A DNA stretch of 64,000 nt. Origin: an uncultured Desulfocurvus sp. Lineage in GTDB: Bacteria > Desulfobacterota > Desulfovibrionia > Desulfovibrionales > Desulfovibrionaceae. Below are positions 17,927 through 31,451 of this stretch, piece by piece (the stretch's first letter is position 1; every line of letters begins with the position of its first letter). The position numbers and the translations under genes were made by a program. The stretch covers positions 19,734-83,733 of the forward strand of contig CAZCYB010000006.1 in NCBI GenBank assembly GCA_964502805.1, written 5' to 3'. The notes beneath the pieces were generated by a model. That model saw only the letters and a list, made by a program, of their open reading frames with translations. It was not told where the DNA came from and made no database searches.

Positions 17927-20900
17927 CTAGGCCACGGTGTTGTGGTTGGCGTCCACCATGATGATGTCCGTGGCGGCCATGGTGCCGCCCACGCCGCCCG
18001 CCACCATGACGGCCGCGCCGCCGCCCATGTCGCCGTCGGCGTCGAACATGAGCTTGTTGTTGATGCTGTCGTGGTAGAAGCAGGCCGTGCTGATGTCCGC
18101 GGCGTTGTATGCGGCCTCGCTGGTGTAGAAGTAGCTCTGGACCATGGAGGTGTTGTTGAAGCCGAAGTTGCCGCCGTCGGTGGTGCAGTAGAAGGCGAAC
18201 TTGTCCGTTCCGGTGGTGAAGTCGGTGACGGTGTCGCCGAACTCGCTCTGGGTCTTGTAGATGAACAGGTCGTTGCCCGCGCCGCCGGTGAGCGAGTCTG
18301 CCCCGGCCCGGCCGAAGAGCTTGTCCGCGCCGCCCAGGCCCGTGATCTGGTTGTTCTCGGCGTTGCCGAAGAGGTCGTCGGAATAGGCGCTGCCGGTGAG
18401 GTGCTCGAAGCCGTCGATGGTGATGGTGCGGCCGCCCTCGTCGATGCCCACCTGCGGCGCTGTGATGGCCAGGTCCACGTTCACGTCCAGGTCGGAGAAC
18501 TCGAAGCTCAGGGTGTCGGTGCCGTCGCCGCCGAACATGGTGTCGTTGCCCATGCCGCAGTGGACAGTGTCGTTGCCCGCGTCGCCGTAGACGGTGTCGT
18601 TGCCGTCCCCGGCGTAGATGACGTCGTTGCCGTCGTCGCCGTGAATGGTGTCGTCGCCTCCGAAGCCCTCGATGACGTTGGCCCCGGCGTTGCCGCTGAG
18701 GGTGTCGCCGAAGCCCATGGTGCCCTTGATGTTCTCGATATTCGACAGGGTGTCCGTGCAGCCGTAGCCGTCGCTGGCCGTGCCGGCCAGCAGGTTCACC
18801 GTCACCCCGGCGCTGGCCGGGCCGTAGGTCACGGTGTCCGTGCCCGCGCCGCCGTCCAGCGTGTCGTTGCCGATGCGGCCCATGAGCAGGTCGTTGCCGC
18901 CCCCGCCGTTGATGGTGTCGTTGCCGCTGCCGCCGTGGATGATGTCGTCCTGGTCCGAGCCGGTAATGTTGAGTGTGCCCGTGACGTCGGCCCCGTTGAA
19001 GCTGAAGGTGCCGCTCATGGCGCTGGCGTTGATGGTCAGGGTCTGGCCCGTGGTGCACAGATCCTCGTCGGCTTCGACGTCCGCCGCGCCGCTGCCCTTG
19101 ACCAGGATGGTCTCCACGTTGACCACCCCGCTCCAGTCCGTGGTGGCCAGCACGCTGCCGCCGTTGGTCCAGTATTCCAGGGTGTCGCTGCCCGCGCCGC
19201 CGTCCACGGTGTCGGCGGAGGTGAGGCGGTTCGCGCCGTCGTTGGCCACATGGAAGGTGTCGTCGCCGTCCCCGCCGTAGAGGGCCTTGGTGCCGTCGTC
19301 GTCGGTGATGGTGTCGTTGCCCGCGCCGCCGTAGATGGTGTCGTTGCCCGCGCCGCCTTCGATGCCGTCGTCTCCGTCGTCGCCGTAGATGGTGTCGTTG
19401 CCCATCTGGCCATTGAGCCAGTCGTTGCCTGCGCCGCCGTAGATGGTGTCGTTGTCCTCGCCGCCGAAGATGTCGTCGACACCGTCCTCGCCCTTGAGCA
19501 GGTCCGCGCCGTTGTAGCCGTAGATGGTGTCGTCGCCCGCGCCGGCGAACACGGTGTCGCCGCTGCTGGTGCCCAGGCCCGCGTTGCCCGCCATGATCTG
19601 GTCGTTGCCCGCGCTGCCGGTGATGTACAGGTAGCCGTCGCCCAGGCCGCTGGCGTCCAGGCTCAGGTTCTGCCCGGCCTGCAGGCTCGGGGCGCTGACG
19701 GTGATGGTGGTGCCGGCCTGACCGTTGAAAATGGTGTTGTTGTTGAAGACGGCGTCCACGCTGGTGGTGGCGTTGTCGAACTGGATGTACTTGAAGCTGC
19801 GGACGCCGTCGTAGTTCTCGCTTCCGTTGCTGATGACGTGCAGGGTGTCGTCGCCCGCGCCGCCGTCGATGACGTCGGTGGAGTTCAGGTTCACGTCCAT
19901 GTAGATCTGGTCGTCGCCCTGGGTGCCGGTGATCTGCTCCGCGCCCTGGTCGCCGCCGCCGTGCACTGTCACGCCCGTGGTCCAATTCGACAGGTTTATG
20001 ATGTCCGAGTCCTGGCCGCCGTTGATGACTTCCATGCCGGAGAAGGTGCTGTTGATGTTCGTGCCGGTGACGGAGCCCGCGCCCTGGGCCATGCCGCCGG
20101 TGATGGTCAGGGCGGTGCCGACGCCGATGGCCGAGTAGTCCAGGGTGTCCGTGCCCGCGCCGCCGTCGGCGATGTCGTCGCCGGTGCCCGGGGCCAGCTT
20201 GTCGTTGCCCAGGCCGCCGTCGAGCACGTCGTTGCCCGTGCCGCCGGTGATGGTGTTGGCGCCGGAATCACCGGTGAGGGTGTCGTTGTAGTTCGAGCCC
20301 AGGATGTTCTCGAACCCGTCGTGCGCGGCGATGACGATGCCCTCGCCCGTGCCCCCGCCCACGGAGACGTTCTGCGAGGTGCTGGTGGCAAGGCTGAAGA
20401 CCGCGGCGCTGGTGGCGCTGGCGAAGGAGATGGTGTCCGTGCCCGCGTCGCCGTGCAGGGTGTCCGTGCCCCACTTGCCGTCGATGCTGTCGTTGCCCGC
20501 CCCGCCCCAGATCTCGTTGTTGCCCTGGTCGCCCTTGAGGGTGTCGTTGTAGGCGGAGCCGATGAGCTTCTCGAAGCCGTCCAGGGTGTCCAGGCCGCCG
20601 CCGCCGGTGTTCTGCTGCGACTTCTGCGTCAGGTCCACGGTGACGGCGCTGCTGGCCTGGGCGTAGGTGATGGTGTCGTCCGTGCCCGCGCCGCCGATGA
20701 GCACGTCCGTGCCGGTGACGGTGCCGTGCACCGTGAGCGTGCCTGCGGCGGCGCTGCCGTCGAAGTTGAAGTTGCCGGTGAGCGTGTGGGCGTCGATCTC
20801 CAGGCTGTTGCCGGAGGTGACCAAGCTGGCGGCGGCGTTGACGCTGACCTCGGAGCTGCCGAGCACGTTGATCTTCTCCACGTTCACCACGCCGTGCCAG

Positions 20901-23900
20901 TCGTCCAGGTCGTTGGAACTGGTCGCCACGTTCAGGGTGTCGTACCCGCCGCCGCCGTTGATGGTGTCCGTGGAGTAGAGGTACCCGGTGCCGCCGTCGT
21001 TGGTGGTGATGGTGTCGTTGCCATCCCCGGCGTTCACCGTGTCGTCGCCGTTGCCTATGATGATGGTGTCGGCCTTGCTCGTGCCCACGATGGCGTTGTT
21101 GGCCGCTGTGCCCGTGATCTGCACGGTGTCCGCGCCCTGGTCCGCGTTCCAGCCGCTGCCGAAGGTCAGGCCGCTCAGGTCGAGGTTGGCGGAGTCCATG
21201 ATAACGCTCAGGGTGGTGTCGCCCGCGCCGGTGGAGTCCACCTGCAGGCCCGTGAGCGCCAGGATCTGGGAGGCGTTGAAGGCCGCGGAGACGCTGTTGC
21301 TCGTGGCGTCGAGCTTCACCTTCTCGATGTTAGTGAAGGTGATGGCCTGGGACAGGTCGTTGGTGCGCAGGTCGGCGTTGACGTAGGTGACCTTGATGGT
21401 GTCCGTGCCGTCTCCGCCGTCGATGCTGGTGACAGTCTCCAGCTTGTTCTGGTTCAGCCACAGGGTGTCGTTGTACTGCGAGCCCTGGGAGGTCTCGAAG
21501 CCGTCCACCGTGTCCGTGTTGCCGTAGGTGTCGGTGATGGTGCCCGCGCTGACGTTGATGGTGATGCCGCAGCCACCGGTTTCGCCCGCGTAGGTAAGGG
21601 CGTCGGTGCCGAGCCCGCCGTTCAGCGTGTCGTTCCCGGCCCCGCCGGTGATGGTGTCGTTGCCGTTGCCGCCGGAGATGGTGTCGTTGCCGTCGCCGCC
21701 GCTAAGGGTGTCGTTGTCGTCGCCGCCGTCGAGGATGTCCGCCCCGGCGCCGCCGGTGAGGATGTCGTTGCCGGTGCCGCCGTCCATGCTGTCGTCCCCC
21801 GCCTCGCCGGAGAGGGTGTCGGCGTTGGCGCCGCCCAGGATGGTGTCGTTGCCCGTTCCGCCGGTGATCTGGTCCGCGCCAGCGCCGCCCTTGAGGGTGT
21901 CGGCCCCGGCGCCGCCGGTGATGTACAGGGCGTAGTTGCCCACGCCGGAGGCGTCGAAGGTGAGGCTGTGCCCGGCGGTGAGGGCCGAGCCCACGATATC
22001 CACGTGGCCGTTGTAGTCCGCGCCCTGGGCCACCATCAGGCTGGTGGGGATGAGGTTGGTGGTGGCGTCGCCCAGCACCACGCGCTCCACGTAGCTCACG
22101 TTGTCCAGGTCGTGGGTCTGCCAGTTGCGGTTGGCCTCCACCACGGTGCCGTTGTCCAGCCGGGCGTAGTCCTCCACCTGGGCCACCTGGGTGAAGTTCA
22201 GGGTGTCGAACCCGTCGCCGCCCGCGATGGTGTCGCCCTGGGCCTTGAGGGGCCCGTCGGCGTAGTAGGTGGTGCTGCGCAGGCCCTGGCCCATGAAGAT
22301 GCTGTCGTCGCCCGCCCCGGCGTTGATGGTGTCCGTGCCGAGCTCGGCGTTGATGATGTCGGCCCCGTCGCCGCCGTTCACGGTGTCGTTGCCGTCGCCG
22401 CCGTCGAGGACGTCGTTGCCCTTGCCGCCGTGCAGGGTGTCGTCGCCCGCGCCGCCGTTCAAGGCGTCGTTGTCCACCACGGAATCGTCGGCGTCGCTGC
22501 CCCAGAGGACGTCGTTGCCCGCGCCGCCGCTGATGATGTCGTCGCCAGCCTCGCCGAAGATGGTGTCGTTGTCCGCGCCGCCGTCGATGATGTCGTTTCC
22601 TTCGTCGCCCTGGATGCTGTCCTCGCCAGCGCCGCCCTCGATGAGGTCGTTGCCCTCGGCGCCGTAGATGAAGTCGTTGCCGCCGCCGCCGTAGATGGCG
22701 TTGTTCGAGTCGTTGCCGATGATGACGTCGCCGAATTCGGAGCCGGTGACGTTGACCACGGACGAGCTGATGGAGGTCACCTGCTCGTTGTCGTACGCGC
22801 TCTGCTGCTCCCACATGGTGTGGTTGGCCAGGGTCTCGTAGTAGGGGCCGTCATCGCGCGGGCCGGGGTTGGGGAAGGAACTGTCGCCGTCCGGGTTCAG
22901 CGTGACGTACATGCCCTGGCTGGCCGTGAGGAAAGACAGGGAGTTGTCCGTGGTGATGTTGTTGATGGTGTCGGTGATTGTGGTGATGATGTCGTTGGGG
23001 TCGAAGCCGAGGTCACCAGGCTCGTTCAACTGGTCCAGCGCGCCCTGGGACAAGACGACCCCGTAGATTACGACAGAAGAAACCGGACCGGTGATGGGGC
23101 TATTGGGGTTGACCGGGTTGCTCGACATATCACCAATGCGAATAATGTCGCCAATGCCCAGCTTGCTTACATCGGTAAGGAAGGACGGCTGCTGTCCCTG
23201 TGCGGCCTGCTGGGCGGCGAAGTCCGCCGCCGCCTTGGCGGCATCGGCCAGGGCCTGGGCCTGCTGCGCGGCAAAGGCCTCCGTCGCCGCCTTGGCCGCC
23301 GCCTCCGCCGCCAGCTTGGCCGCCGCCTCCAGCTTGGCCGCCGCCGCCGCCGCGGCCTTGGCCGCCGCCTCGGCTGCGGCCTTGGCCGCCGGGTCCGTGG
23401 CCTTGGCCGCCGCCGCAGCAGCAGCTGCTGCCGCCGCCTTGGCCGCCGCCGCCTCGGCCGCCTTGGCCGCCGCCTCGGCCGCCGCCTTGGCCGAGGTGTC
23501 CGCCGCAGCCTGGACCTTGGGGTCCACCCGGCCTGTCTGCTGGCCGGGGGCGGTGGAGATGACGTCCGTAGGCGCGCCCTGGGTCTGGATGTTCGCCGGG
23601 GTGAGCGCCTGGAAATACTTGAATTCCTGGGGGGTCATGATGAGCACGGGGCCCGCGCCGAACTGGTTCACCTCCACCTTGACGCCGGAGGTGGACAGCA
23701 CCTGGAACTGCCCGCCGCCCAGGGGCTGCACGATGACGGGCTTGCCGTCGAAGACCATGATCAGGTGGTTCTCGCTGCCCTGGCCCGGAGGCGGAACGGT
23801 GTGGCCGGTCTCGGTGCCGCGTATGCCGATGGTGGCAAGCGGGCTCTGCATCTTGAAGCTTTCGGGGTTCTGCTTGACGATCTCGCCGGTGACGGTGCGG

Positions 23901-24166
23901 AAGGTGCCCTGGGCCATCTTGAACAGGGCCTGGCCCGTGCCCTTGTCGGCGTTGTAGACGTACTGGTCCAGGCTGACCTTGGAGGCCTCGCCCACGTTCA
24001 GCACGGTCTTGTCCAGGAACTCGATGGACCCGGCGGAACCCTTGGTGGTGGAAATGGTGTCGCCCTTGAACACGGGGTTGCCCTGTTCAAGGTTGCGGGT
24101 CCCTTCCGGACCCATGGCGTTCATCTGCCCCTTGACGACCTTGGCGACGCCGATCTGCTGGGCCAT
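17927..24166 (-). CDS. Giant RTX / hemolysin-type Ca-binding repeat protein with FecR-like N-terminal domain (probable type I secretion substrate)
   Basis: 2079-aa ORF. The N-terminus (VAKVVKGQMNAMGPEGTRNLEQGNPVFKGDTISTTKGSAGSIEFLDKTVLNVGE...IGIRGTE) looks like a FecR domain, followed by an Ala/Lys-rich linker. Several dozen GGxGxD nonapeptide repeats then occur in blocks. The C-terminus is GGAGNDLFIY...DTVTDFTTGTDKFAF, a T1SS-target-like tail with no Cys-rich or signal peptide features. Confidence 0.9.
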   Translation of the reverse strand: MAQQIGVAKVVKGQMNAMGPEGTRNLEQGNPVFKGDTISTTKGSAGSIEFLDKTVLNVGEASKVSLDQYVYNADKGTGQALFKMAQGTFRTVTGEIVKQNPESFKMQSPLATIGIRGTETGHTVPPPGQGSENHLIMVFDGKPVIVQPLGGGQFQVLSTSGVKVEVNQFGAGPVLIMTPQEFKYFQALTPANIQTQGAPTDVISTAPGQQTGRVDPKVQAAADTSAKAAAEAAAKAAEAAAAKAAAAAAAAAAAKATDPAAKAAAEAAAKAAAAAAAKLEAAAKLAAEAAAKAATEAFAAQQAQALADAAKAAADFAAQQAAQGQQPSFLTDVSKLGIGDIIRIGDMSSNPVNPNSPITGPVSSVVIYGVVLSQGALDQLNEPGDLGFDPNDIITTITDTINNITTDNSLSFLTASQGMYVTLNPDGDSSFPNPGPRDDGPYYETLANHTMWEQQSAYDNEQVTSISSSVVNVTGSEFGDVIIGNDSNNAIYGGGGNDFIYGAEGNDLIEGGAGEDSIQGDEGNDIIDGGADNDTIFGEAGDDIISGGAGNDVLWGSDADDSVVDNDALNGGAGDDTLHGGKGNDVLDGGDGNDTVNGGDGADIINAELGTDTINAGAGDDSIFMGQGLRSTTYYADGPLKAQGDTIAGGDGFDTLNFTQVAQVEDYARLDNGTVVEANRNWQTHDLDNVSYVERVVLGDATTNLIPTSLMVAQGADYNGHVDIVGSALTAGHSLTFDASGVGNYALYITGGAGADTLKGGAGADQITGGTGNDTILGGANADTLSGEAGDDSMDGGTGNDILTGGAGADILDGGDDNDTLSGGDGNDTISGGNGNDTITGGAGNDTLNGGLGTDALTYAGETGGCGITINVSAGTITDTYGNTDTVDGFETSQGSQYNDTLWLNQNKLETVTSIDGGDGTDTIKVTYVNADLRTNDLSQAITFTNIEKVKLDATSNSVSAAFNASQILALTGLQVDSTGAGDTTLSVIMDSANLDLSGLTFGSGWNADQGADTVQITGTAANNAIVGTSKADTIIIGNGDDTVNAGDGNDTITTNDGGTGYLYSTDTINGGGGYDTLNVATSSNDLDDWHGVVNVEKINVLGSSEVSVNAAASLVTSGNSLEIDAHTLTGNFNFDGSAAAGTLTVHGTVTGTDVLIGGAGTDDTITYAQASSAVTVDLTQKSQQNTGGGGLDTLDGFEKLIGSAYNDTLKGDQGNNEIWGGAGNDSIDGKWGTDTLHGDAGTDTISFASATSAAVFSLATSTSQNVSVGGGTGEGIVIAAHDGFENILGSNYNDTLTGDSGANTITGGTGNDVLDGGLGNDKLAPGTGDDIADGGAGTDTLDYSAIGVGTALTITGGMAQGAGSVTGTNINSTFSGMEVINGGQDSDIINLSNWTTGVTVHGGGDQGAEQITGTQGDDQIYMDVNLNSTDVIDGGAGDDTLHVISNGSENYDGVRSFKYIQFDNATTSVDAVFNNNTIFNGQAGTTITVSAPSLQAGQNLSLDASGLGDGYLYITGSAGNDQIMAGNAGLGTSSGDTVFAGAGDDTIYGYNGADLLKGEDGVDDIFGGEDNDTIYGGAGNDWLNGQMGNDTIYGDDGDDGIEGGAGNDTIYGGAGNDTITDDDGTKALYGGDGDDTFHVANDGANRLTSADTVDGGAGSDTLEYWTNGGSVLATTDWSGVVNVETILVKGSGAADVEADEDLCTTGQTLTINASAMSGTFSFNGADVTGTLNITGSDQDDIIHGGSGNDTINGGGGNDLLMGRIGNDTLDGGAGTDTVTYGPASAGVTVNLLAGTASDGYGCTDTLSNIENIKGTMGFGDTLSGNAGANVIEGFGGDDTIHGDDGNDVIYAGDGNDTVYGDAGNDTVHCGMGNDTMFGGDGTDTLSFEFSDLDVNVDLAITAPQVGIDEGGRTITIDGFEHLTGSAYSDDLFGNAENNQITGLGGADKLFGRAGADSLTGGAGNDLFIYKTQSEFGDTVTDFTTGTDKFAFYCTTDGGNFGFNNTSMVQSYFYTSEAAYNAADISTACFYHDSINNKLMFDADGDMGGGAAVMVAGGVGGTMAATDIIMVDANHNTVA

Positions 24167-24375: not shown

Positions 24376-24999
24376 TTACTGGGCTGTTTTCTTCTTGGAT
24401 TTCTTCGGCTTGTCCGCTGCGGGCTTGCCCTTGGTCTTGGCCGCCGCCTGGGCCTTGTCCTTGGACTTCTTGCCGGCCTTGGGCGCGTCGTTTTCTTTGC
24501 CGGGCTTGGCGGCCCTGCCGGATTTCTCGGCCTTTTCGCCCTTCGCGCCCTTGCGCTTGGCCTTGATGGCCTCGGCCCGGGCGGCCTTGCGCACGGCGGC
24601 GGGCTCGTACATGGGCACCTTGCCGATGCCCAGGAAGCCCGGATGCACGCCCAGCTCCCCGGCGGCCTGGCCCCAGCTCTTGCCGTCCCTGCGCATGTCC
24701 TCCACCTGGGCCGGGCTTACCCCGGCCACGTGGGCCAGGGCCTCGGCGCGGGTCTTCTCCAGGCGGGCCTCGCTGGCCTCGTAGGCGTCGGCGGCCTGGC
24801 GCGCGGCGTCCTTGCCCCGGCTGCGGGCCTTCCAGGCCTCGTCGCGCAGCCGCGCGTTCTCCTCCAGCACGGCGTCCATGCGCCGCAGCACCGGGTCGTC
24901 GCCCAGGGCCAGGGCCTCCGCCGCCAGGGGGCCGGACGCGCAGGCCAGTATCAGGATGGCCGCCAGGGCCAGCACGGTGCGCCGGGGATGTGCCGTCAT
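24376..24999 (-). CDS. Secreted or lipoprotein-like protein with histone-H1-like Lys/Ala-rich C-terminal tail
   Basis: The ATG at 24999 is preceded by GGAGAG. Sequence begins MTAHPRRTVLALAAILILACASG (signal or lipobox-like). The tail is AIKAKRKGAKGEKAEKSGRAAKPGKENDAPKAGKKSKDKAQAAAKTKGKPAADKPKKSKKKTAQ. I recognise no family. Confidence 0.55.
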   Translation of the reverse strand: MTAHPRRTVLALAAILILACASGPLAAEALALGDDPVLRRMDAVLEENARLRDEAWKARSRGKDAARQAADAYEASEARLEKTRAEALAHVAGVSPAQVEDMRRDGKSWGQAAGELGVHPGFLGIGKVPMYEPAAVRKAARAEAIKAKRKGAKGEKAEKSGRAAKPGKENDAPKAGKKSKDKAQAAAKTKGKPAADKPKKSKKKTAQ

Positions 25000-25066
25000 G
25001 TTCGCTCTCCGTATTCGCTGGCGCGCAGTGCCGCCCCTTGCCTGGGCGCGCACGCGCGGTGTGTTC

Positions 25067-26470
25067 TCATCGCCCGCCCGTGGCGGTGTCCGTCCCATCG
25101 GCGGCGTGGCCGCCAGCATCCCTGCCCTGGCTCCGGGCCGCCGCCAGGCCCAGGCACAGGGCCCCGGCCGTGGCCGGGACGTGCAAGGCCGGGGAAAGGG
25201 CCGAGCAGATCAAAAGCGTGGCCAAAAGCCCGAAGCCGAAGCGCGACCGCGCGGGCCGGGCCGGAAGGACGCAGAAAAGCGCCCCGGCCAGCACGGCCAC
25301 TGGGCCCGCGGCGCCCCAGGCGGCCAAAAGCCGCAGGGCCGAGGAGGGGATCTCGAAGATGGCCACGGCCAGGCCGCCGCCTTCCATGTCCAGCCCGGGC
25401 AGCAGCCACTCGTCGCTGATGGCCAGGGCCAGTGGCTCGCCCAGGGGCAGGCCGGTGAACGGGGCCATGGGGCTCTGGCCCAGGGCCTCGATGGTGGCGG
25501 TGAAGTACCAGGCCAGGCCCAGCTCCTCCCGCCCGCTGGCCATGTGCGGCAGGGGCAGGGTCAGGCTCATCCAGATGAGCAGCAGGCACACGCTGGCCAG
25601 GGCCAGGCGGGGGCGCAGGGGCCCGCGCGCGAGCGCGAGCAGGACGAAGCCCGCCGTGGCCAGGCCCGGGCGGGAGAACCCGGCGAACAGCCCGGCCAGG
25701 ATGAGCCAGCGCGGCAGCGCGGCAAGGGGCGTCCGGGCCTCGGGGTCGTCGTCCAGGGTGGCGCACAGGGCCAGGCAGAGCAGGGTGGCCAGGATGTCCG
25801 CCGTGGCCGGTCCGCTGGCCGCGACGCTTCCCGCTACACCGCCCGTCGCACCGAGGAACAGGCCCCCGCCCAGCACCAGGCCCTTGGCGGCGATGGCCGT
25901 GGCCAGGAAATCGAGCACCAAAAGCGCCCCCAGGGCGCCGCCCAGCCGGGCGATGGCCGCGCGCGGGGCCGGGCCGAAGTGGGCCGTCCACAGCCCGGCG
26001 AACAGGGCCAGGGCGGGCAGCCTGAGCTCGTCCAGCAGGGGGGCCAGGCTCTGGGCCTGGGCCAGCCGGGGGCCGAGGTATCTGTGCAGGGCCAGGGCCA
26101 GGGCGGCCACGGCCACGGCCAGGCCCAGGCGCGTCAGAAGCCGGGGGCGGGCCGGGGAGGGTTGCCCGCCATGGCCGGAGGCGGCGCGCCGGGGGGCCAG
26201 GGCGCTCATGCCCAGGCTGTACAGCAGGGCCAGGGCGGCCAGGGCGGCATAGAGGCCCATGCCCTGGGGCGTGAAATGGCGCAGGGCGTCGGGCTTGCCC
26301 GTGACCTTGGCCGCCAGCAGGGCCAGGGGCGCCAGCAGCAGAGCCGCGAAGAATGGCAGCTGCGCCATGACGGCCCCGGCCAGGGTGGCCGGGCGCGTGG
26401 TCTGGGGCTGGGGCGTGGAGGCGTCGGGCATGCTCGCTGGGCTCCGTCTATTCCGTCTGCTGGGGGCCAT
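25067..26470 (-). CDS. Polytopic integral membrane protein, function unknown
   Basis: 467-aa ORF with many Leu/Ala-rich hydrophobic segments. It is the only frame here with protein-like composition. Alternative starts exist at 26431 (GGAG upstream) and 26368. Confidence 0.5.
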   Translation of the reverse strand: MAPSRRNRRSPASMPDASTPQPQTTRPATLAGAVMAQLPFFAALLLAPLALLAAKVTGKPDALRHFTPQGMGLYAALAALALLYSLGMSALAPRRAASGHGGQPSPARPRLLTRLGLAVAVAALALALHRYLGPRLAQAQSLAPLLDELRLPALALFAGLWTAHFGPAPRAAIARLGGALGALLVLDFLATAIAAKGLVLGGGLFLGATGGVAGSVAASGPATADILATLLCLALCATLDDDPEARTPLAALPRWLILAGLFAGFSRPGLATAGFVLLALARGPLRPRLALASVCLLLIWMSLTLPLPHMASGREELGLAWYFTATIEALGQSPMAPFTGLPLGEPLALAISDEWLLPGLDMEGGGLAVAIFEIPSSALRLLAAWGAAGPVAVLAGALFCVLPARPARSRFGFGLLATLLICSALSPALHVPATAGALCLGLAAARSQGRDAGGHAADGTDTATGGR

Positions 26471-26537: not shown

Positions 26538-28607
26538 TTACAGCTCCACCTGGCTGCCCAGCTCCACCACGCGCCCCGGCGGGATGCCGAAGAAGGTGGT
26601 GGCGTTCCAGGCGTTGCGCGACATGAAGGCGAACAGCGCCTTGCGCCAGGAGGCCATCTTCGACGGCCCGCCGGTGAGCAGGGTCTCTCGGCCCAGGTAG
26701 AAGGTGGTGGCCTGGAGCTGGGCGTCCAGTCCGTGGGCCTTGGCCATCTCCAGTATCTCCGGCACGCTGGGGGTCTGCATGAAGCCGTAGCGGGCGATGA
26801 CCCGGAAGAAGCCGTGGCCCAGGGGCTTCACGGTCAGGCGCTCCGCCCTGGGCACGTAGGGCGTCTCCGCGCTCTGGATGGACAAGAGCAGCACCTGCTC
26901 GTGCAGGATCTTGTTGTGCTTGAAGTTGTGCAGCAGCGTGATGGGCGTTCCCGTGGGCGAGACGGACATGAACACGCCCGTGCCCGGCACGCGCACCGGC
27001 TTCTGCGAGGCCACCACGCTGTTCAGGAACAGCTCCGTGGGCAGGCCCAGCTTGGCGAACTGCACGCCCAGGGCCCTTTTGCCCTCGCGCCAGGTGGCCA
27101 TGGCGATCATGATCAGCCCGGCCACGGTGAGGGTGAACCAGCCGCCGTCGGCGATCTTGAGCAGGTTGGCCGAGAGGAAGGACAGGTCGAAGAGCAGGAA
27201 CAGGGCCACCAGGGGCAGGGCCTTCCAGGCGGACCAGCCCCAGAGCATGGTGGACACGAACAGGAAGAAGATGGAGGTGATGGTCATGTCGATGGTGACG
27301 GCGATGCCGTAGGCCGCGGCTAGGCCGCTGGAGCTCTTGAAGGCCAGCACCAGGCCCAGGCAGGCCACCATCATGGCCCGGTTCACCCCGGGCAGGTAGA
27401 TCTGGCCCTTGGTGTGGGCGCTGGTGTTCACGATGCGGATGCGCGGGCAGAAGCCCATCTGCACCGCCTGCTGCGTGAGCGAGAACACCCCCGAGATCAT
27501 GGCCTGGGAGGCGATGACCGTGGCGAAGGTGGCCAGGGCCACCATGGGGTAGAGCAGGTTCTCGGGCACCAGGCCGTAGAAGGGGTTGAAGGACTTTTCC
27601 GGGCTGGCCAGCAAGAGCGCCCCCTGGCCGAAGTAGTTGAGCAGCAGGGCGGGCAGCACCAGCACGCACCAGGAGAGGCGGATGGGCGCGCGGCCGAAGT
27701 GGCCCATGTCCGCGTACAGGGCCTCGCCGCCGGTGATGCACAGCACCACCGAGCCCAGCACCACCATGCCGTGCAGGCGGTTCTCGATGAAGAAGCGCAC
27801 CGCGTGCAGGGGGTTCACGGCGGCCAGGATCTCCGGGTTATCCAGAATGGCCGAGAGGCCAAGCCCCGCCAGGGTGGCGAACCAGAGGATCATCACCGGG
27901 CCGAAGACCTTGCCGATGCTGTCCGTGCCGTGCTTCTGCATCAGGAACAGGCCCACCAGCACCGCGCAGGTGCCGGGGATGATGAAGGGCGTGGCGGCGT
28001 CCGTGGCCACGCTCAGTCCCTCCATGGCCGAGAGCACGGAGATGGCCGGGGTGATGATGCCGTCGCCGTACAGCAGCGCCGCGCCGAAGGTGGCCAGGAA
28101 GACCACGATGGCGTACTTGGCGCGGCTTTCGGCCTGGACCTTGGCCTGCAGCAGGGCCAGCAGGGCGAACACGCCGCCCTCGCCCTTGTTGTCGGCCCGG
28201 AGCACGAAGACCACGTACTTCACGCTCACCACCACGATGAGCGACCAGAGGATGAGCGAGAGCACGCCCAGGATGTTGGCGGGCAGAAGCGCGATGGCGT
28301 GGGGGCCGTGGAAGCATTCCTTCACGGCGTAGAGCGGGCTGGTGCCGATGTCTCCGTAGACCACGCCCAGTGCGGCCAGGGCCAGGGCCAGGGTGCGGGG
28401 ATTGCCGTGGGGCGCGTGGCCGCCGCCCTCGTGGGCGGGCTGTGCGGGCTGGCCGGCCTGGCTGGGCTGGGCGGGCTGTGCGGGCGCGGGCGGGACCTCG
28501 GCCTGGGGCGCTCCACCGCCTTCCTCGGCCACGCGGGCGAACAGCCGCGACAGGCGCGGCGCCAGCAGGGCCAGGGGACGGAACACTGCCCGGGGGGGAA
28601 ACGGCAT
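26538..28607 (-). CDS. kup: KUP/HAK/KT-family potassium uptake protein (copy 1)
   Basis: Contains LGVVYGDIGTSPLYAVKECF plus about 12 TM segments and a cytoplasmic C-domain. The ATG at 28607 (MPFPPRAVF) is preceded by GGAGG. The longer track start at 28796 would run through the riboswitch. Confidence 0.93.
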   Translation of the reverse strand: MPFPPRAVFRPLALLAPRLSRLFARVAEEGGGAPQAEVPPAPAQPAQPSQAGQPAQPAHEGGGHAPHGNPRTLALALAALGVVYGDIGTSPLYAVKECFHGPHAIALLPANILGVLSLILWSLIVVVSVKYVVFVLRADNKGEGGVFALLALLQAKVQAESRAKYAIVVFLATFGAALLYGDGIITPAISVLSAMEGLSVATDAATPFIIPGTCAVLVGLFLMQKHGTDSIGKVFGPVMILWFATLAGLGLSAILDNPEILAAVNPLHAVRFFIENRLHGMVVLGSVVLCITGGEALYADMGHFGRAPIRLSWCVLVLPALLLNYFGQGALLLASPEKSFNPFYGLVPENLLYPMVALATFATVIASQAMISGVFSLTQQAVQMGFCPRIRIVNTSAHTKGQIYLPGVNRAMMVACLGLVLAFKSSSGLAAAYGIAVTIDMTITSIFFLFVSTMLWGWSAWKALPLVALFLLFDLSFLSANLLKIADGGWFTLTVAGLIMIAMATWREGKRALGVQFAKLGLPTELFLNSVVASQKPVRVPGTGVFMSVSPTGTPITLLHNFKHNKILHEQVLLLSIQSAETPYVPRAERLTVKPLGHGFFRVIARYGFMQTPSVPEILEMAKAHGLDAQLQATTFYLGRETLLTGGPSKMASWRKALFAFMSRNAWNATTFFGIPPGRVVELGSQVEL

Positions 28608-28821
28608 GGACGGGACCTCCGAAGCGGACGCGGGGGCTGCCCCGCGCTGCGGAGGTGGGCCCCTTTCGATGCCTGCGAGGTGAGCTGACGGGCTGGGACC
28701 GAAAGGTGTCCCGCGCCTTGCTTCGGCGCTGCGCCCCGGTGAGGAGTGGTTCCCCCGCTTCCGGCCACGGGCCTGGAATTCGGCAGGGCACTTCATACTT
28801 GGCCGGGCGAGAGGGTGTCAA
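28608..28821 (-). promoter_or_regulatory. c-di-AMP riboswitch (ydaO/kimA class) with promoter and SD-sequestering helix, leader of kup copy 1
   Basis: The minus strand has TTGACA-N18-TATGAA. It then reads GCCGAAUUCC...AGCGGGGGAACCAC...CCGGGGCGCAGCG...ACACCUUUCGGUCCCAGCCCGUCAGCUCACCUCGCAGGCAUCGAAAGGGG. This matches remembered ydaO-motif blocks (GCCGAAUCC, GGGGGA-CC, GGGG-G, CCCG-CAGCUAACCUCG-AGGC). The anti-SD ACCUCCG pairs with the SD CGGAGGU 8 nt before the AUG. Confidence 0.8.
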
Positions 28822-28905
28822 GGCCACGCTGGTAGACCCCCCCCGCGAGGCGGAGGGGGAGGGGCGACTCGGGGGCAGGCTGCCTGCGGGCGGCGCCTTG
28901 CCCGG

Positions 28906-30876
28906 CTAGAGCTGCACCTGGCTGCCCAGCTCGACCACGCGCCCCGGCGGGATGCCGAAGAAGGTGGTGGCGTTCCAGGCGTTGCGCGACATGTAGGCGA
29001 AGAGCGTCTTGCGCCAGGCGCTCATGCGCGTGTCGCCGCCGGTCAGCAGGGTCTCGCGGCCCAGGTAGAAGGTGGTGGCCTCCATGGGCGCGCTCAGGCC
29101 GTGGTCCCTGGCCTTGAGCAGGATGTCCGGAACGCTGGGGGTCTGCATGAAGCCGTAGCGCGCCAGCACGCGGAAGAAGCCATGGCCCAGGGGCGTCACC
29201 TCCAGGCGCTCGGCCTCGGGCACGAAGGGCGTCTCCGCGCTCTGGATGGACAAGAGCAGCACCTGCTCGTGCAGCACCTTGTTGTGCTTGAAGTGGTGCA
29301 GGAGCGTGATGGGCGTGCCCGTGGGGGAAACGGACATGAACACGCCCGTGCCCGGGATGCGCAGCGGCGCCTGCTGGGACACCAGGCTGTCCAGGAACAG
29401 GTTGATGGGCAGGCCCAGCTGCGCGAACTGGCGGCCCAGGGCCTTCTTGCCGTCGCGCCAGGTCAGCATGGCCATCATGATGACCAGGGCCACGGTGATG
29501 GTGAACCAGCCGCCGTCGAAGAACTTGAGCAGGTTGGCGCCCAGGTAGGTCACGTCGAAGGCCAAAAACAGCGCGATGAGCGGGATGGTCTTCCAGTAGG
29601 GCCAGCGCCACAGGGTGTGCACCACGTAGAAGTAGATCACCGAGGTGATGCCCATGGTGGCGGTGACGGCGATGCCGTAGGCCCCGGCCAGGCCGCTGGA
29701 GCTCTTGAAGGCCAGTACCAGCCCCAGGCAGGCCACCATCATGGCGTTGTTCACCCCGGGCAGGTAGATCTGGCCCTTGGTCTCGGCGCTGGTGTTCACG
29801 ATGTGGATGCGCGGGCAGAAGCCCAGCTGCACGGCCTGCTGCGTCAGCGAATAGACCCCGGAGATCATGGCCTGGGAGGCGATGACCGTGGCCGCCGTGG
29901 ACAGGACCACCATGGGGTAGAGCAGGGCCCGGGGCACCAGGCCGTAGAAGGGGTTGAAGGCCAGCTCCGGGTGGTCGAGCAGCAGCGCCCCCTGCCCGAA
30001 GTAGTTGCACAAAAGCGCGGGCAGCACCATGGCGTACCACGATAGCCGGATGGGCACTGCGCCGAAGTGGCCCATGTCGGCGTAGAGGGCCTCGCCGCCG
30101 GTGATGCACAGCACCACCGAGCCCAGCACCACCAGGCCGTGCAGCCTGTTGGCCAGGAAGAAGTCCACGGCGTACGCCGGGTTCACGGCGGCCAGGATCT
30201 CCGGGCTCTGGGCCACCTCGGCCAGGCCCAGGGCGGCGATGACCGCGAACCAGACCACCATGAGCGGGCCGAAGACCTTGCCGATGCGCTCCGTGCCGTG
30301 CTTCTGCATGCGGAACAGCGCGATGAGGATGAGGCAGGTGCCGGGGATGATGAAGGGACGGGCCTTGTCCGTGGCCACGTCCAGGCCCTCCATGGCCGAG
30401 AGCACGGAGATGGCCGGGGTGATGATGCCGTCGCCGTAGAGCAGGGCCGCTCCGAACAGGGCCGCGGTGATGAGCAGGGCGTGGCCGGTCTTGCCCGTGC
30501 CGTCCACCGAGCCCTTGACCAGCGCCAGGAGCGCGAAGATGCCGCCCTCGCCCTTGTTGTGGGCGCGCATGATGAACATGACGTACTTGAGGCTGACCAC
30601 GATGAGCAGGGACCAGAAGATGAGCGAGAGCACGCCCATGACGTTGGCGGGCAGGAGCTCCACGGCGTGGGGGCCGTGGAAGCATTCCTTCACGGCGTAG
30701 AGGGGGCTGGTGCCGATGTCGCCGTAGACCACGCCCAGGGCGGCCAGGGCCAGGGCCATGGTGCGGCCGCCGTGGTGGCCGTGGCCTTCTCCGCCGTGGG
30801 GCGGGGAATCCTCGGGCAGGGCCAGGGCGGGTCGCGGCGCAATGAGGCCGCGCAGAAACCGCAAGGCGGCGGGCAT
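28906..30876 (-). CDS. kup: KUP/HAK/KT-family potassium uptake protein (copy 2)
   Basis: Carries the same signature, ALAALGVVYGDIGTSPLYAVKECFHGPHA. The ATG at 30876 (MPAALRFLRG) is preceded by GGAGG. The longer track start at 30921 lies inside the leader helix. Confidence 0.93.
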   Translation of the reverse strand: MPAALRFLRGLIAPRPALALPEDSPPHGGEGHGHHGGRTMALALAALGVVYGDIGTSPLYAVKECFHGPHAVELLPANVMGVLSLIFWSLLIVVSLKYVMFIMRAHNKGEGGIFALLALVKGSVDGTGKTGHALLITAALFGAALLYGDGIITPAISVLSAMEGLDVATDKARPFIIPGTCLILIALFRMQKHGTERIGKVFGPLMVVWFAVIAALGLAEVAQSPEILAAVNPAYAVDFFLANRLHGLVVLGSVVLCITGGEALYADMGHFGAVPIRLSWYAMVLPALLCNYFGQGALLLDHPELAFNPFYGLVPRALLYPMVVLSTAATVIASQAMISGVYSLTQQAVQLGFCPRIHIVNTSAETKGQIYLPGVNNAMMVACLGLVLAFKSSSGLAGAYGIAVTATMGITSVIYFYVVHTLWRWPYWKTIPLIALFLAFDVTYLGANLLKFFDGGWFTITVALVIMMAMLTWRDGKKALGRQFAQLGLPINLFLDSLVSQQAPLRIPGTGVFMSVSPTGTPITLLHHFKHNKVLHEQVLLLSIQSAETPFVPEAERLEVTPLGHGFFRVLARYGFMQTPSVPDILLKARDHGLSAPMEATTFYLGRETLLTGGDTRMSAWRKTLFAYMSRNAWNATTFFGIPPGRVVELGSQVQL

Positions 30877-31094
30877 GAAAATACCTCCGGTACGAGTGGG
30901 TGCGGGGGAGGCCCCGTCCAAACCGGAGGTCTTCCCCTTTCGACGCCTGCGAGGTTAGCTGACGGGCTCGGACCGAAAGGTGTCCTACGCGCTGATGCGC
31001 GATGCGCCCCAAGGGATGTGGGTCCCCCGCTCCCGGGAAACGTTCCCGGAATTCGGCAACGCGACGATTACGCCCGGAGCCGCGGGGCTGTCAA
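30877..31094 (-). promoter_or_regulatory. c-di-AMP riboswitch (ydaO/kimA class) with promoter and SD-sequestering helix, leader of kup copy 2
   Basis: The minus strand has TTGACA-N18-TAATCG. It then reads GUUGCCGAAUUCCGGGAACGUUUCCCGGGAGCGGGGGACCCACAUCCCUUGGGGCGCAUCGCGCAUCAGCGCGUAGGACACCUUUCGGUCCGAGCCCGUCAGCUAACCUCGCAGGCGUCGAAAGGGG. A perfect 9-bp helix, ACCUCCGGU/ACCGGAGGU, covers the SD. Confidence 0.85.
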
Positions 31095-31160
31095 GCGGTG
31101 GACGAGGTTGCCAAGGCGGGCGCGGGCGGGTACCCTGGCGCAAATGGACGGCGCGGGGGC

Positions 31161-31262: not shown

Positions 31263-31451
31263 ATGAACCTGTTGGAGATCCTCCTCATTGTCATCATCGG
31301 TTTGGTATTGTTCAACTCGGGCAAGCTGCCGCAGGTGGGCGGCGGCATCGGAAAGGCCATCAGCAACTTCAAGCGCAGCCTGAACGAGCCCGAGGAGATT
31401 GACGTCACGGAGAAGAAAAAGGACCCGGGCGACACGCCGCCGAAGTCCTGA
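31263..31451 (+). CDS. tatA: TatA/TatE-family small membrane protein
   Basis: 62 aa: MNLLEILLIVIIGLVLFNSGKLPQVGGGIGKAISNFKRSLNE... This is a TM helix followed by an F-x-x-G-KLP hinge and an amphipathic helix, typical of TatA. Confidence 0.7.
   Translation: MNLLEILLIVIIGLVLFNSGKLPQVGGGIGKAISNFKRSLNEPEEIDVTEKKKDPGDTPPKS

Follow-up and report, generated by a model that had tools for sequence, protein, structure and literature searches.

Cyclic di-AMP (c-di-AMP) riboswitches on K+ importer genes are OFF switches, and kup leaders are among the predicted targets already catalogued for such riboswitches in several phyla, including Proteobacteria (PMC6488665). In Bacillus, aptamers of the RF00379 family (ydaO/kimA-type) occupy the leaders of kimA and ktrAB in B. 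subtilis and of kdpFABC in B. thuringiensis. Adjacent kup paralogs have also been described. The kupA and kupB genes of Lactococcus lactis are more than 70% identical, are attributed to a local duplication and belong to a c-di-AMP/K+ circuit (PMC6108528, PMC10243994), and the two proteins differ in their response to c-di-AMP (PMC10284832). KUP-family proteins dimerise via their cytoplasmic domains, the cytoplasmic domain of KimA binds c-di-AMP, and no sequence signature for c-di-AMP binding has been established in Kup proteins (PMC10284832). For the Desulfovibrionaceae, we found in the literature no paper on a riboswitch-kup system and no experimentally tested member. Here, we analyzed two adjacent kup genes, each preceded by a predicted c-di-AMP riboswitch, on contig CAZCYB010000006.1 of an uncultured Desulfocurvus sp.; the data from this organism consisted of a single 64,000-nt stretch, hereafter the window. 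It is quite probable that an ancestral Desulfovibrionaceae cassette of promoter, riboswitch, expression platform and kup was duplicated once in a Humidesulfovibrio-type ancestor, and that both copies were kept, diverged and were partly converted, under a presumed OFF control by c-di-AMP.

The two units are collinear on the minus strand and contain the same parts in the same order, with unit A transcribed first and unit B following. Unit A opens with a −35 box, TTGACA (31089-31094), and, after a 16-nt spacer, a −10-like CGTAAT (31072-31067), both identified by reading the sequence. The aptamer (30929-31068), the expression platform (30877-30930) and kupA (28906-30876; 656 amino acids) come next. 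An inter-unit spacer of 84 nt (28822-28905) extends from the kupA stop codon (28906) to the −35 box of unit B (TTGACA, 28821-28816), which was likewise read from the sequence and is accompanied by a −10-like TATGAA (28797-28792). Unit B continues with its own aptamer (28656-28795), platform (28608-28656) and kupB (26538-28607; 689 amino acids). From promoter to stop codon, the units were about 80% identical in a global nucleotide alignment. Direct repeats of 259-300 nt with 80-85% identity shared a single offset of 2368 nt in the coding regions, whereas the aptamers were offset by 2274 nt, a difference explained by an N-terminal indel. The longest identical run measured 60 nt (28993-28934 and 26625-26566), and further runs measured 53, 49, and 49 nt. 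Among the annotated neighboring genes, no insertion sequence (IS) element, transposase or integrase gene was found in the flanks of the units. The first-pass annotation was thus accurate in describing two collinear units about 85 nt apart, with a 60-nt identical stretch near both 3′ ends and without a flanking IS element or integrase.

Both proteins matched K_trans and K_trans_C over their full length (PF02705, 610 bits; PF22776, 163-171 bits), with E values of 2.6e-183 for KupA and 3e-183 for KupB. The nearest solved relative was the plant protein 'Potassium transporter 5' (E = 2e-98), and the hydropathy profile of KupA had about 12 transmembrane (TM) segments. On these domain matches, kupA and kupB are both classified as encoding KUP/HAK/KT K+ transporters. 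The two proteins shared 75% identity (492/655 aligned residues).

Close relatives were taken from a large protein collection, in which the closest were labelled Humidesulfovibrio or Desulfovibrio; the Kup proteins obtained from a GTDB scan with one genome per species were all distant and did not exceed 58% identity. In a neighbor-joining tree built from 68 Kup proteins, all 59 sequences of A and B type formed one clade with 100% bootstrap support, outside which stood Fundidesulfovibrio and Nitratidesulfovibrio. The window's kupA fell in the A-type clade and its kupB in the B-type group. In F. terrae, F. magnetotacticus and an outgroup contig (L090), where kup is single-copy, RF00379 was present directly upstream of the gene, at 99.7, 74.3, and 89.2 bits, respectively, and the leaders had the same design, with a TTGAC −35 box and a hairpin burying the Shine-Dalgarno sequence (SD). 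The distant kup genes of Myxococcota, Geobacteraceae, and Deinococcales had no aptamer. Because single-copy outgroup genes carry all the parts, the promoter-riboswitch-platform-kup cassette is ancestral in the family. The 100% clade and the complete outgroup leaders agree with the local duplication of a whole promoter-riboswitch-kup cassette that had been proposed from the window, and comparison of the sequences indicates a tandem duplication that copied the cassette as a whole, promoter to stop codon.

Genomic contexts were then compared in seven assemblies of relatives, several of which had two Kup proteins on one contig. In five of the seven (GCA_034286495, H. mexicanus GCA_900188225, JGI 3300048576, GCA_050251495, and GCA_018822105), the tandem pair kupA kupB lay between PilZ-motB-motA(-tatA) and two genes of unassigned function. 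The same pair in the same synteny argues that it is older than these lineages, and the duplication predates the radiation of the Humidesulfovibrio-type clade. The remaining two assemblies had a single B-type kup elsewhere in the genome and no riboswitch. These single genes (L083:5430-6001 and L084:5540-6001, one of them on a complete 2.99-Mb chromosome) had amtB-glnK upstream and tatA downstream. Their leaders contained a TTGACA box, and an aptamer was not found there even at E ≤ 1 with a clade-specific model. B-type genes therefore exist free of riboswitch control in some lineages.

Two of the relatives, L087 and L085, had three riboswitch-importer units in a row. The additional unit, upstream of kupA, consisted of a KimA-like gene for a third K+ importer, of the AA_permease_2 type, and its own c-di-AMP aptamer (L087:3410-3720 and L085:2554-2845). 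In L087, the permease and kupA aptamers shared 98% identity, and the permease leader ran into a short open reading frame (ORF) of about 34 codons, which is similar to the N-terminus of Kup (MPAV..FRPLALL) and stops at the permease SD. This suggests that, in L087, the 5′ portion of a kup cassette was copied in front of another gene.

After segmental gene conversion between tandem paralogs, one segment of a gene tracks the paralog, while another tracks the genome. Such a mosaic was observed here. Quartet site patterns with distant relatives were paralog-specific by 82 to 7 in alignment columns 150-200 and by 117 to 7 in columns 450-500, whereas from column 500 onward the concerted pattern prevailed over orthology at the amino-acid level (208 versus 30). 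Trees of the two segments differed accordingly. The membrane-domain segment grouped the genes as A versus B and not by genome. In the tree of the 3′ 621 nt, the A gene joined the B gene of the same genome in L082, L085, and L086 (100% each) and in L087 (86%), and the A genes of the window and of its closest relative, L081, together joined the two B genes (95%). Divergence between A and B at four-fold sites of the 3′ segment was 0.03-0.05 in L082 and L086, pointing to recent conversion, and 0.17 in the window, pointing to an old event. The position of the 49-nt run at alignment nt 1755-1804 is consistent with conversion, as the A and B genes of other genomes have genome-specific states in common over this region. 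In both L082 and L086, the two aptamers of a genome had identical variable stem-loops, so conversion also reaches the leader there. Taken together, these patterns indicate that the 3′ third, encoding the cytoplasmic C-terminal domain, was repeatedly homogenised by gene conversion, while the membrane domain stayed copy-specific. Similarity of the 3′ thirds, which could be taken for a sign of recency, is attributed to this process. As KUP-family proteins dimerise via the cytoplasmic domain, which in KimA binds c-di-AMP, its concerted evolution is worth a functional look.

Four diagnostic positions (113, 406, 407, and 414 in KupA numbering) separated A from B. At 113, 406, and 407, A-type proteins had the outgroup residues I, A, and T, and at 414 they had I, where outgroups mostly have L. 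In 21 of the 22 B-type proteins, the residues were V, I, D, and F, respectively (I113V, A406I, T407D, and Phe 414). Since the A residues match the outgroups and B carries fixed changes, B is the derived copy. Positions 406-414 lie within the predicted TM10, and KupB has gained a conserved acidic residue (Asp) in a part of the membrane domain that resisted conversion. KupB also has a Pro/Ala/Gln-rich, low-complexity N-terminal extension (PAPAQPAQPSQAGQPAQPAHEGGGH; window 28400-28560, minus strand; residues ~17-70), which KupA lacks and which accounts for the 33-residue difference in length. In all relatives, both paralogs varied most at their N-termini.

Both aptamers spanned RF00379 model positions 1-134. 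Against a gathering score of 38 bits, aptamer A scored 89.9 bits over the full model and aptamer B, a B-type variant, 68.6 bits; with a clade-specific model, aptamer B reached 120 bits. Each lies in the 5′ leader on the same strand as its gene, between the promoter and the K+ uptake gene, about 20-25 nt downstream of TTGACA and 50-55 nt upstream of the kup start codon. Across 12 aptamers of the clade, 98.4% of pair cells held standard pairs, compared with 35-51% in slid controls, and two pairs had double-sided changes. An ortholog of aptamer A was found upstream of kupA in all five relatives.

The alternative that survives best concerns unit B, which might be leaving riboswitch control: aptamer B would be a decaying relic and kupB effectively constitutive, with kupA alone regulated by c-di-AMP. 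Its lower score is in line with this, and so is the variation among relatives. The mutual identity of B aptamers was 59-77%, compared with 78-92% for A aptamers, suggesting that the B aptamers evolve faster. In L081, aptamer B was deleted, leaving the promoter and SD in a leader of about 100 nt; in L085 it was also absent, with the promoter kept; and in L087 it was degenerate (54.5 bits). However, Rfam marked only one non-standard pair in the window's aptamer B, the departures of its stems from those of A are compensatory, and the SD-burying hairpin is intact. Five of its bases depart from the clade consensus, but each occurs in 8-27% of 104 metagenomic aptamers, among which its G...CG combination recurs as well, and the aptamer of L154 shares three B-type states. 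Our own working idea that aptamer B is eroding in the window was rejected because its deviant bases are that common. We therefore regard the relic explanation as unlikely for the window. In agreement with the initial description of both aptamers as intact, aptamer B is probably functional, possibly with properties unlike those of A.

The L154 aptamer (L154:1-480) is on a short Humidesulfovibrio-like metagenome contig (Ga0183099_1010054). It is followed by a low-GC insert of about 135 nt and then by an exact repeat of its own 3′ half, and the kup reading frame is broken. This arrangement stems from mis-assembly or from an insertion accompanied by duplication.

The promoter elements were conserved in position. 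In each of the 12 related leaders, TTGACA and the aptamer were equally far apart, and outgroup leaders had TTGACA or TTGACG at this place. The TTGACA of unit B was kept in all B leaders, including those without an aptamer, and this conservation where the aptamer is deleted argues that unit B has an independent promoter. A conserved CTTGGCAAC(C) motif, centred on the odd palindrome TTGnCAA, precedes the −35 box of unit A by about 10-15 nt (window 31104-31113; minus strand CTTGGCAACC). It was also present in the leaders of L081, L082, L086, L085-kimA, and L087-kimA, restricted to the first unit of each array, which adjoins the divergent tatA, and it may be a regulator binding site. A reading of the conserved TTGGCAAC motif as a sigma-54 site was rejected by eye, as no −12 element stands at the right spacing.

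Folding placed the SD of both units in a hairpin. In platform A, the arms ACCUCCGG (30930-30923) and CCGGAGGU (30890-30883) bury the SD GGAGG (30888-30884), and UAUUUUC and the start codon follow. In platform B, the hairpin ACCUCCG...CGGAGGU (28656-28615) buries the SD at 28620-28616 and is not followed by a U-tract. For platform A, the unpaired probability of the SD was approximately 0 in thermodynamic folding. A two-tier SD hairpin, in which the anti-SD CCUCC pairs with the SD, was common to the A, B, kimA-type, and outgroup leaders. The SD is positioned eight nt before the ATG, and the two units share the same promoter/aptamer/hairpin/start architecture and SD-to-ATG spacing. A U-tract after the hairpin was present in unit A of the window and in some relatives, but not in unit B of the window.

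These elements suggest how the locus may work. Each kup copy would be transcribed from its own sigma-70-type promoter. At high c-di-AMP, signalling enough K+, the aptamer would be locked, and the downstream anti-SD arm would be free to pair with the SD. The hairpin of unit A together with its UAUUUUC tract also resembles an intrinsic terminator, so that unit A may combine termination with a translational block, while unit B would be controlled at translation only. The outcome would be less Kup and less K+ uptake, and at low c-di-AMP both importers would be made. In the ligand-free state, GCGGGG of the aptamer might exchange its own partner, CCUCGC, for the similar CCUCCG further downstream. 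We only infer the ligand response, the OFF logic and a functional difference between the copies; the OFF logic is adopted because riboswitches on K+ importers are OFF switches.

Several points weigh against this account of duplication and control. Folding was carried out without a modelled ligand; it kept the SD always paired and yielded no competing ON structure, and the alternative pairing of GCGGGG with the anti-SD CCUCCG is conjectural. Generic promoter and terminator scans called neither element at units A and B, although the promoter of unit A was missed because its −10 is weak. Transcription of kupA may read through the spacer into unit B: the spacer contains a G+C-rich hairpin without a U-tract, its fold was no better than that of shuffled sequence (z = −0.22), and the generic scan called no terminator in these 84 nt. 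The split between A and B inside the clade was weakly supported, at 57% and 32% in the protein tree and 60% for the membrane-domain segment. Finally, part of the synonymous concerted signal could reflect genome-specific codon bias, but the amino-acid pattern and the segment trees argue against this as the whole explanation.

If the copies do differ in function, the pair might form a two-threshold, possibly heteromeric, K+ uptake module, an extension that we hold to be rather doubtful. If it were true, the variant aptamer and the U-tract-less platform would give kupB another c-di-AMP set-point or control mode. KupA and KupB would form heterodimers, with the C-terminal dimerisation and regulatory domains kept alike by conversion, and the membrane domains, with the Asp in TM10 of B, would be kept different and confer different transport properties. 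Where relatives have repeatedly lost only the B aptamer, the second threshold would have been retuned.

A recent, lineage-specific tandem duplication, of which the identical runs would be leftovers, has very little probability. The four runs speak for it, as does a low apparent synonymous divergence (dS 0.31, dN 0.18, omega 0.59 by NG86), and the first-pass annotation had stressed long identical runs and near-identical protein cores. Neither feature shows recency, and the proteins are only 75% identical. Each copy in the window had an ortholog in the closest relative that was 88% identical; in this comparison, 86 amino-acid sites followed the orthology pattern (A = A, B = B, A different from B) and 1 was concerted. 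The presence of the same pair in five assemblies also contradicts recency. As for the runs, the nucleotide sequence of the 60-nt stretch hardly varied among all 14 homologs in the comparison, which is explained by constraint plus extreme codon bias; it was thus rejected both as a conversion tract and as a sign of recency. The proposed dN/dS of the paralogs could be computed, but it was discarded as a clock: the G+C content at third codon positions (GC3) was 96-97% in both genes, and a GC3 of 97% leaves synonymous sites effectively two-state and dS uninformative, while conversion mixes histories. Codon identity versus expectation, four-fold sites by segment, and quartet patterns were used in its place.

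It is just as improbable that the adjacency of the two genes results from independent acquisitions, for instance through horizontal transfer, of two distant kup paralogs that each had a riboswitch. The aptamers were about 75% identical, with B not specifically close to A, and the deep A/B nodes were weakly supported, as such a history would allow. However, A and B formed a clade with 100% bootstrap that excluded every other Kup protein found, so that the phylogeny, on which this alternative had been made to depend, contradicts it. The best matches in the GTDB scan did not exceed 58% identity, leader architecture and SD-to-ATG spacing were identical in both units, and no mobile-element genes were nearby. 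An assembly artefact, with one locus assembled as two, is practically ruled out: nothing speaks for it beyond the general risk that repeats pose to assemblies, and this concern is answered by differences at about 20% of bases plus several indels, including the 33-codon N-terminal difference, and by the same arrangement in five independent assemblies (NCBI, JGI). 

The surroundings of the pair were also annotated. On one side lie tatA (31263-31451, plus strand), motA, motB, and a PilZ gene. On the other side, two genes of unassigned function precede a gene for a giant RTX protein of 2079 amino acids. The first two are candidate ORFs of 467 and 247 amino acids (window 24376-26470, minus strand) directly downstream of kupB, without a Pfam match; the first resembles a polytopic membrane protein. 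Counterparts of both (about 400-420 and 190-220 amino acids) follow kupB in all five tandem-pair relatives, and the two genes may belong to the same functional neighborhood. The RTX protein (window 17927-24166, minus strand) has an N-terminal FecR domain and 23 matched stretches of RTX calcium-binding repeats; its gene is the one after these two, and a similarly large gene occupies the same position in L082 and L086. Elsewhere in the window, a 6S RNA (RF00013) was found at 2495-2677 on the minus strand (103.8 bits).

The locus reveals no new mechanism and no new class of element. That a riboswitch was duplicated together with its transporter had been singled out as noteworthy; the copying itself is real, but the link between riboswitch and kup was already predicted (PMC6488665), and relatives have up to three units. 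The suggestion of sub-functionalisation, made at the same time, receives some support from the fixed membrane residues of B and its labile aptamer, although the functional difference itself is inferential. What the locus offers is a clean, datable natural case of a riboswitch copied with its promoter, expression platform and gene. It also illustrates the course after duplication, in which one copy appears to have stayed ancestral, while the other has fixed membrane changes and a drifting RNA sensor, and the cytoplasmic domains have been kept alike. In addition, the predicted riboswitch control of Kup-type importers is extended to the sulfate-reducing Desulfovibrionaceae.

Compared with the Bacillus systems, the aptamer family, its position in the leader and the expected OFF logic are the same, but the expression platform differs. 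In the Bacillus examples that have been characterised, a canonical intrinsic terminator is located well ahead of the start codon, whereas here the SD-burying hairpin stands just before the ATG, and only that of unit A is followed by a U-tract. The Lactococcus pair likewise consists of adjacent KUP genes of local origin, but its duplication was independent of that in the Desulfovibrionaceae, and the sensor is of another kind: in Lactococcus, c-di-AMP binds the proteins, and lactic acid bacteria are without the riboswitch (PMC10243994), while here each copy has a predicted RNA sensor. With respect to segmental conversion in general, the incongruence between segments is of the same type and nothing unusual, found mainly in the region of the cytoplasmic domain and, in two relatives, also in the aptamer. 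Every ingredient is therefore already known, as both the riboswitch-kup association and adjacent kup paralogs have been described, and the added value of this locus lies in the evolutionary detail, namely that copy B is derived, that gene conversion was segmental and that the aptamer of B is labile.

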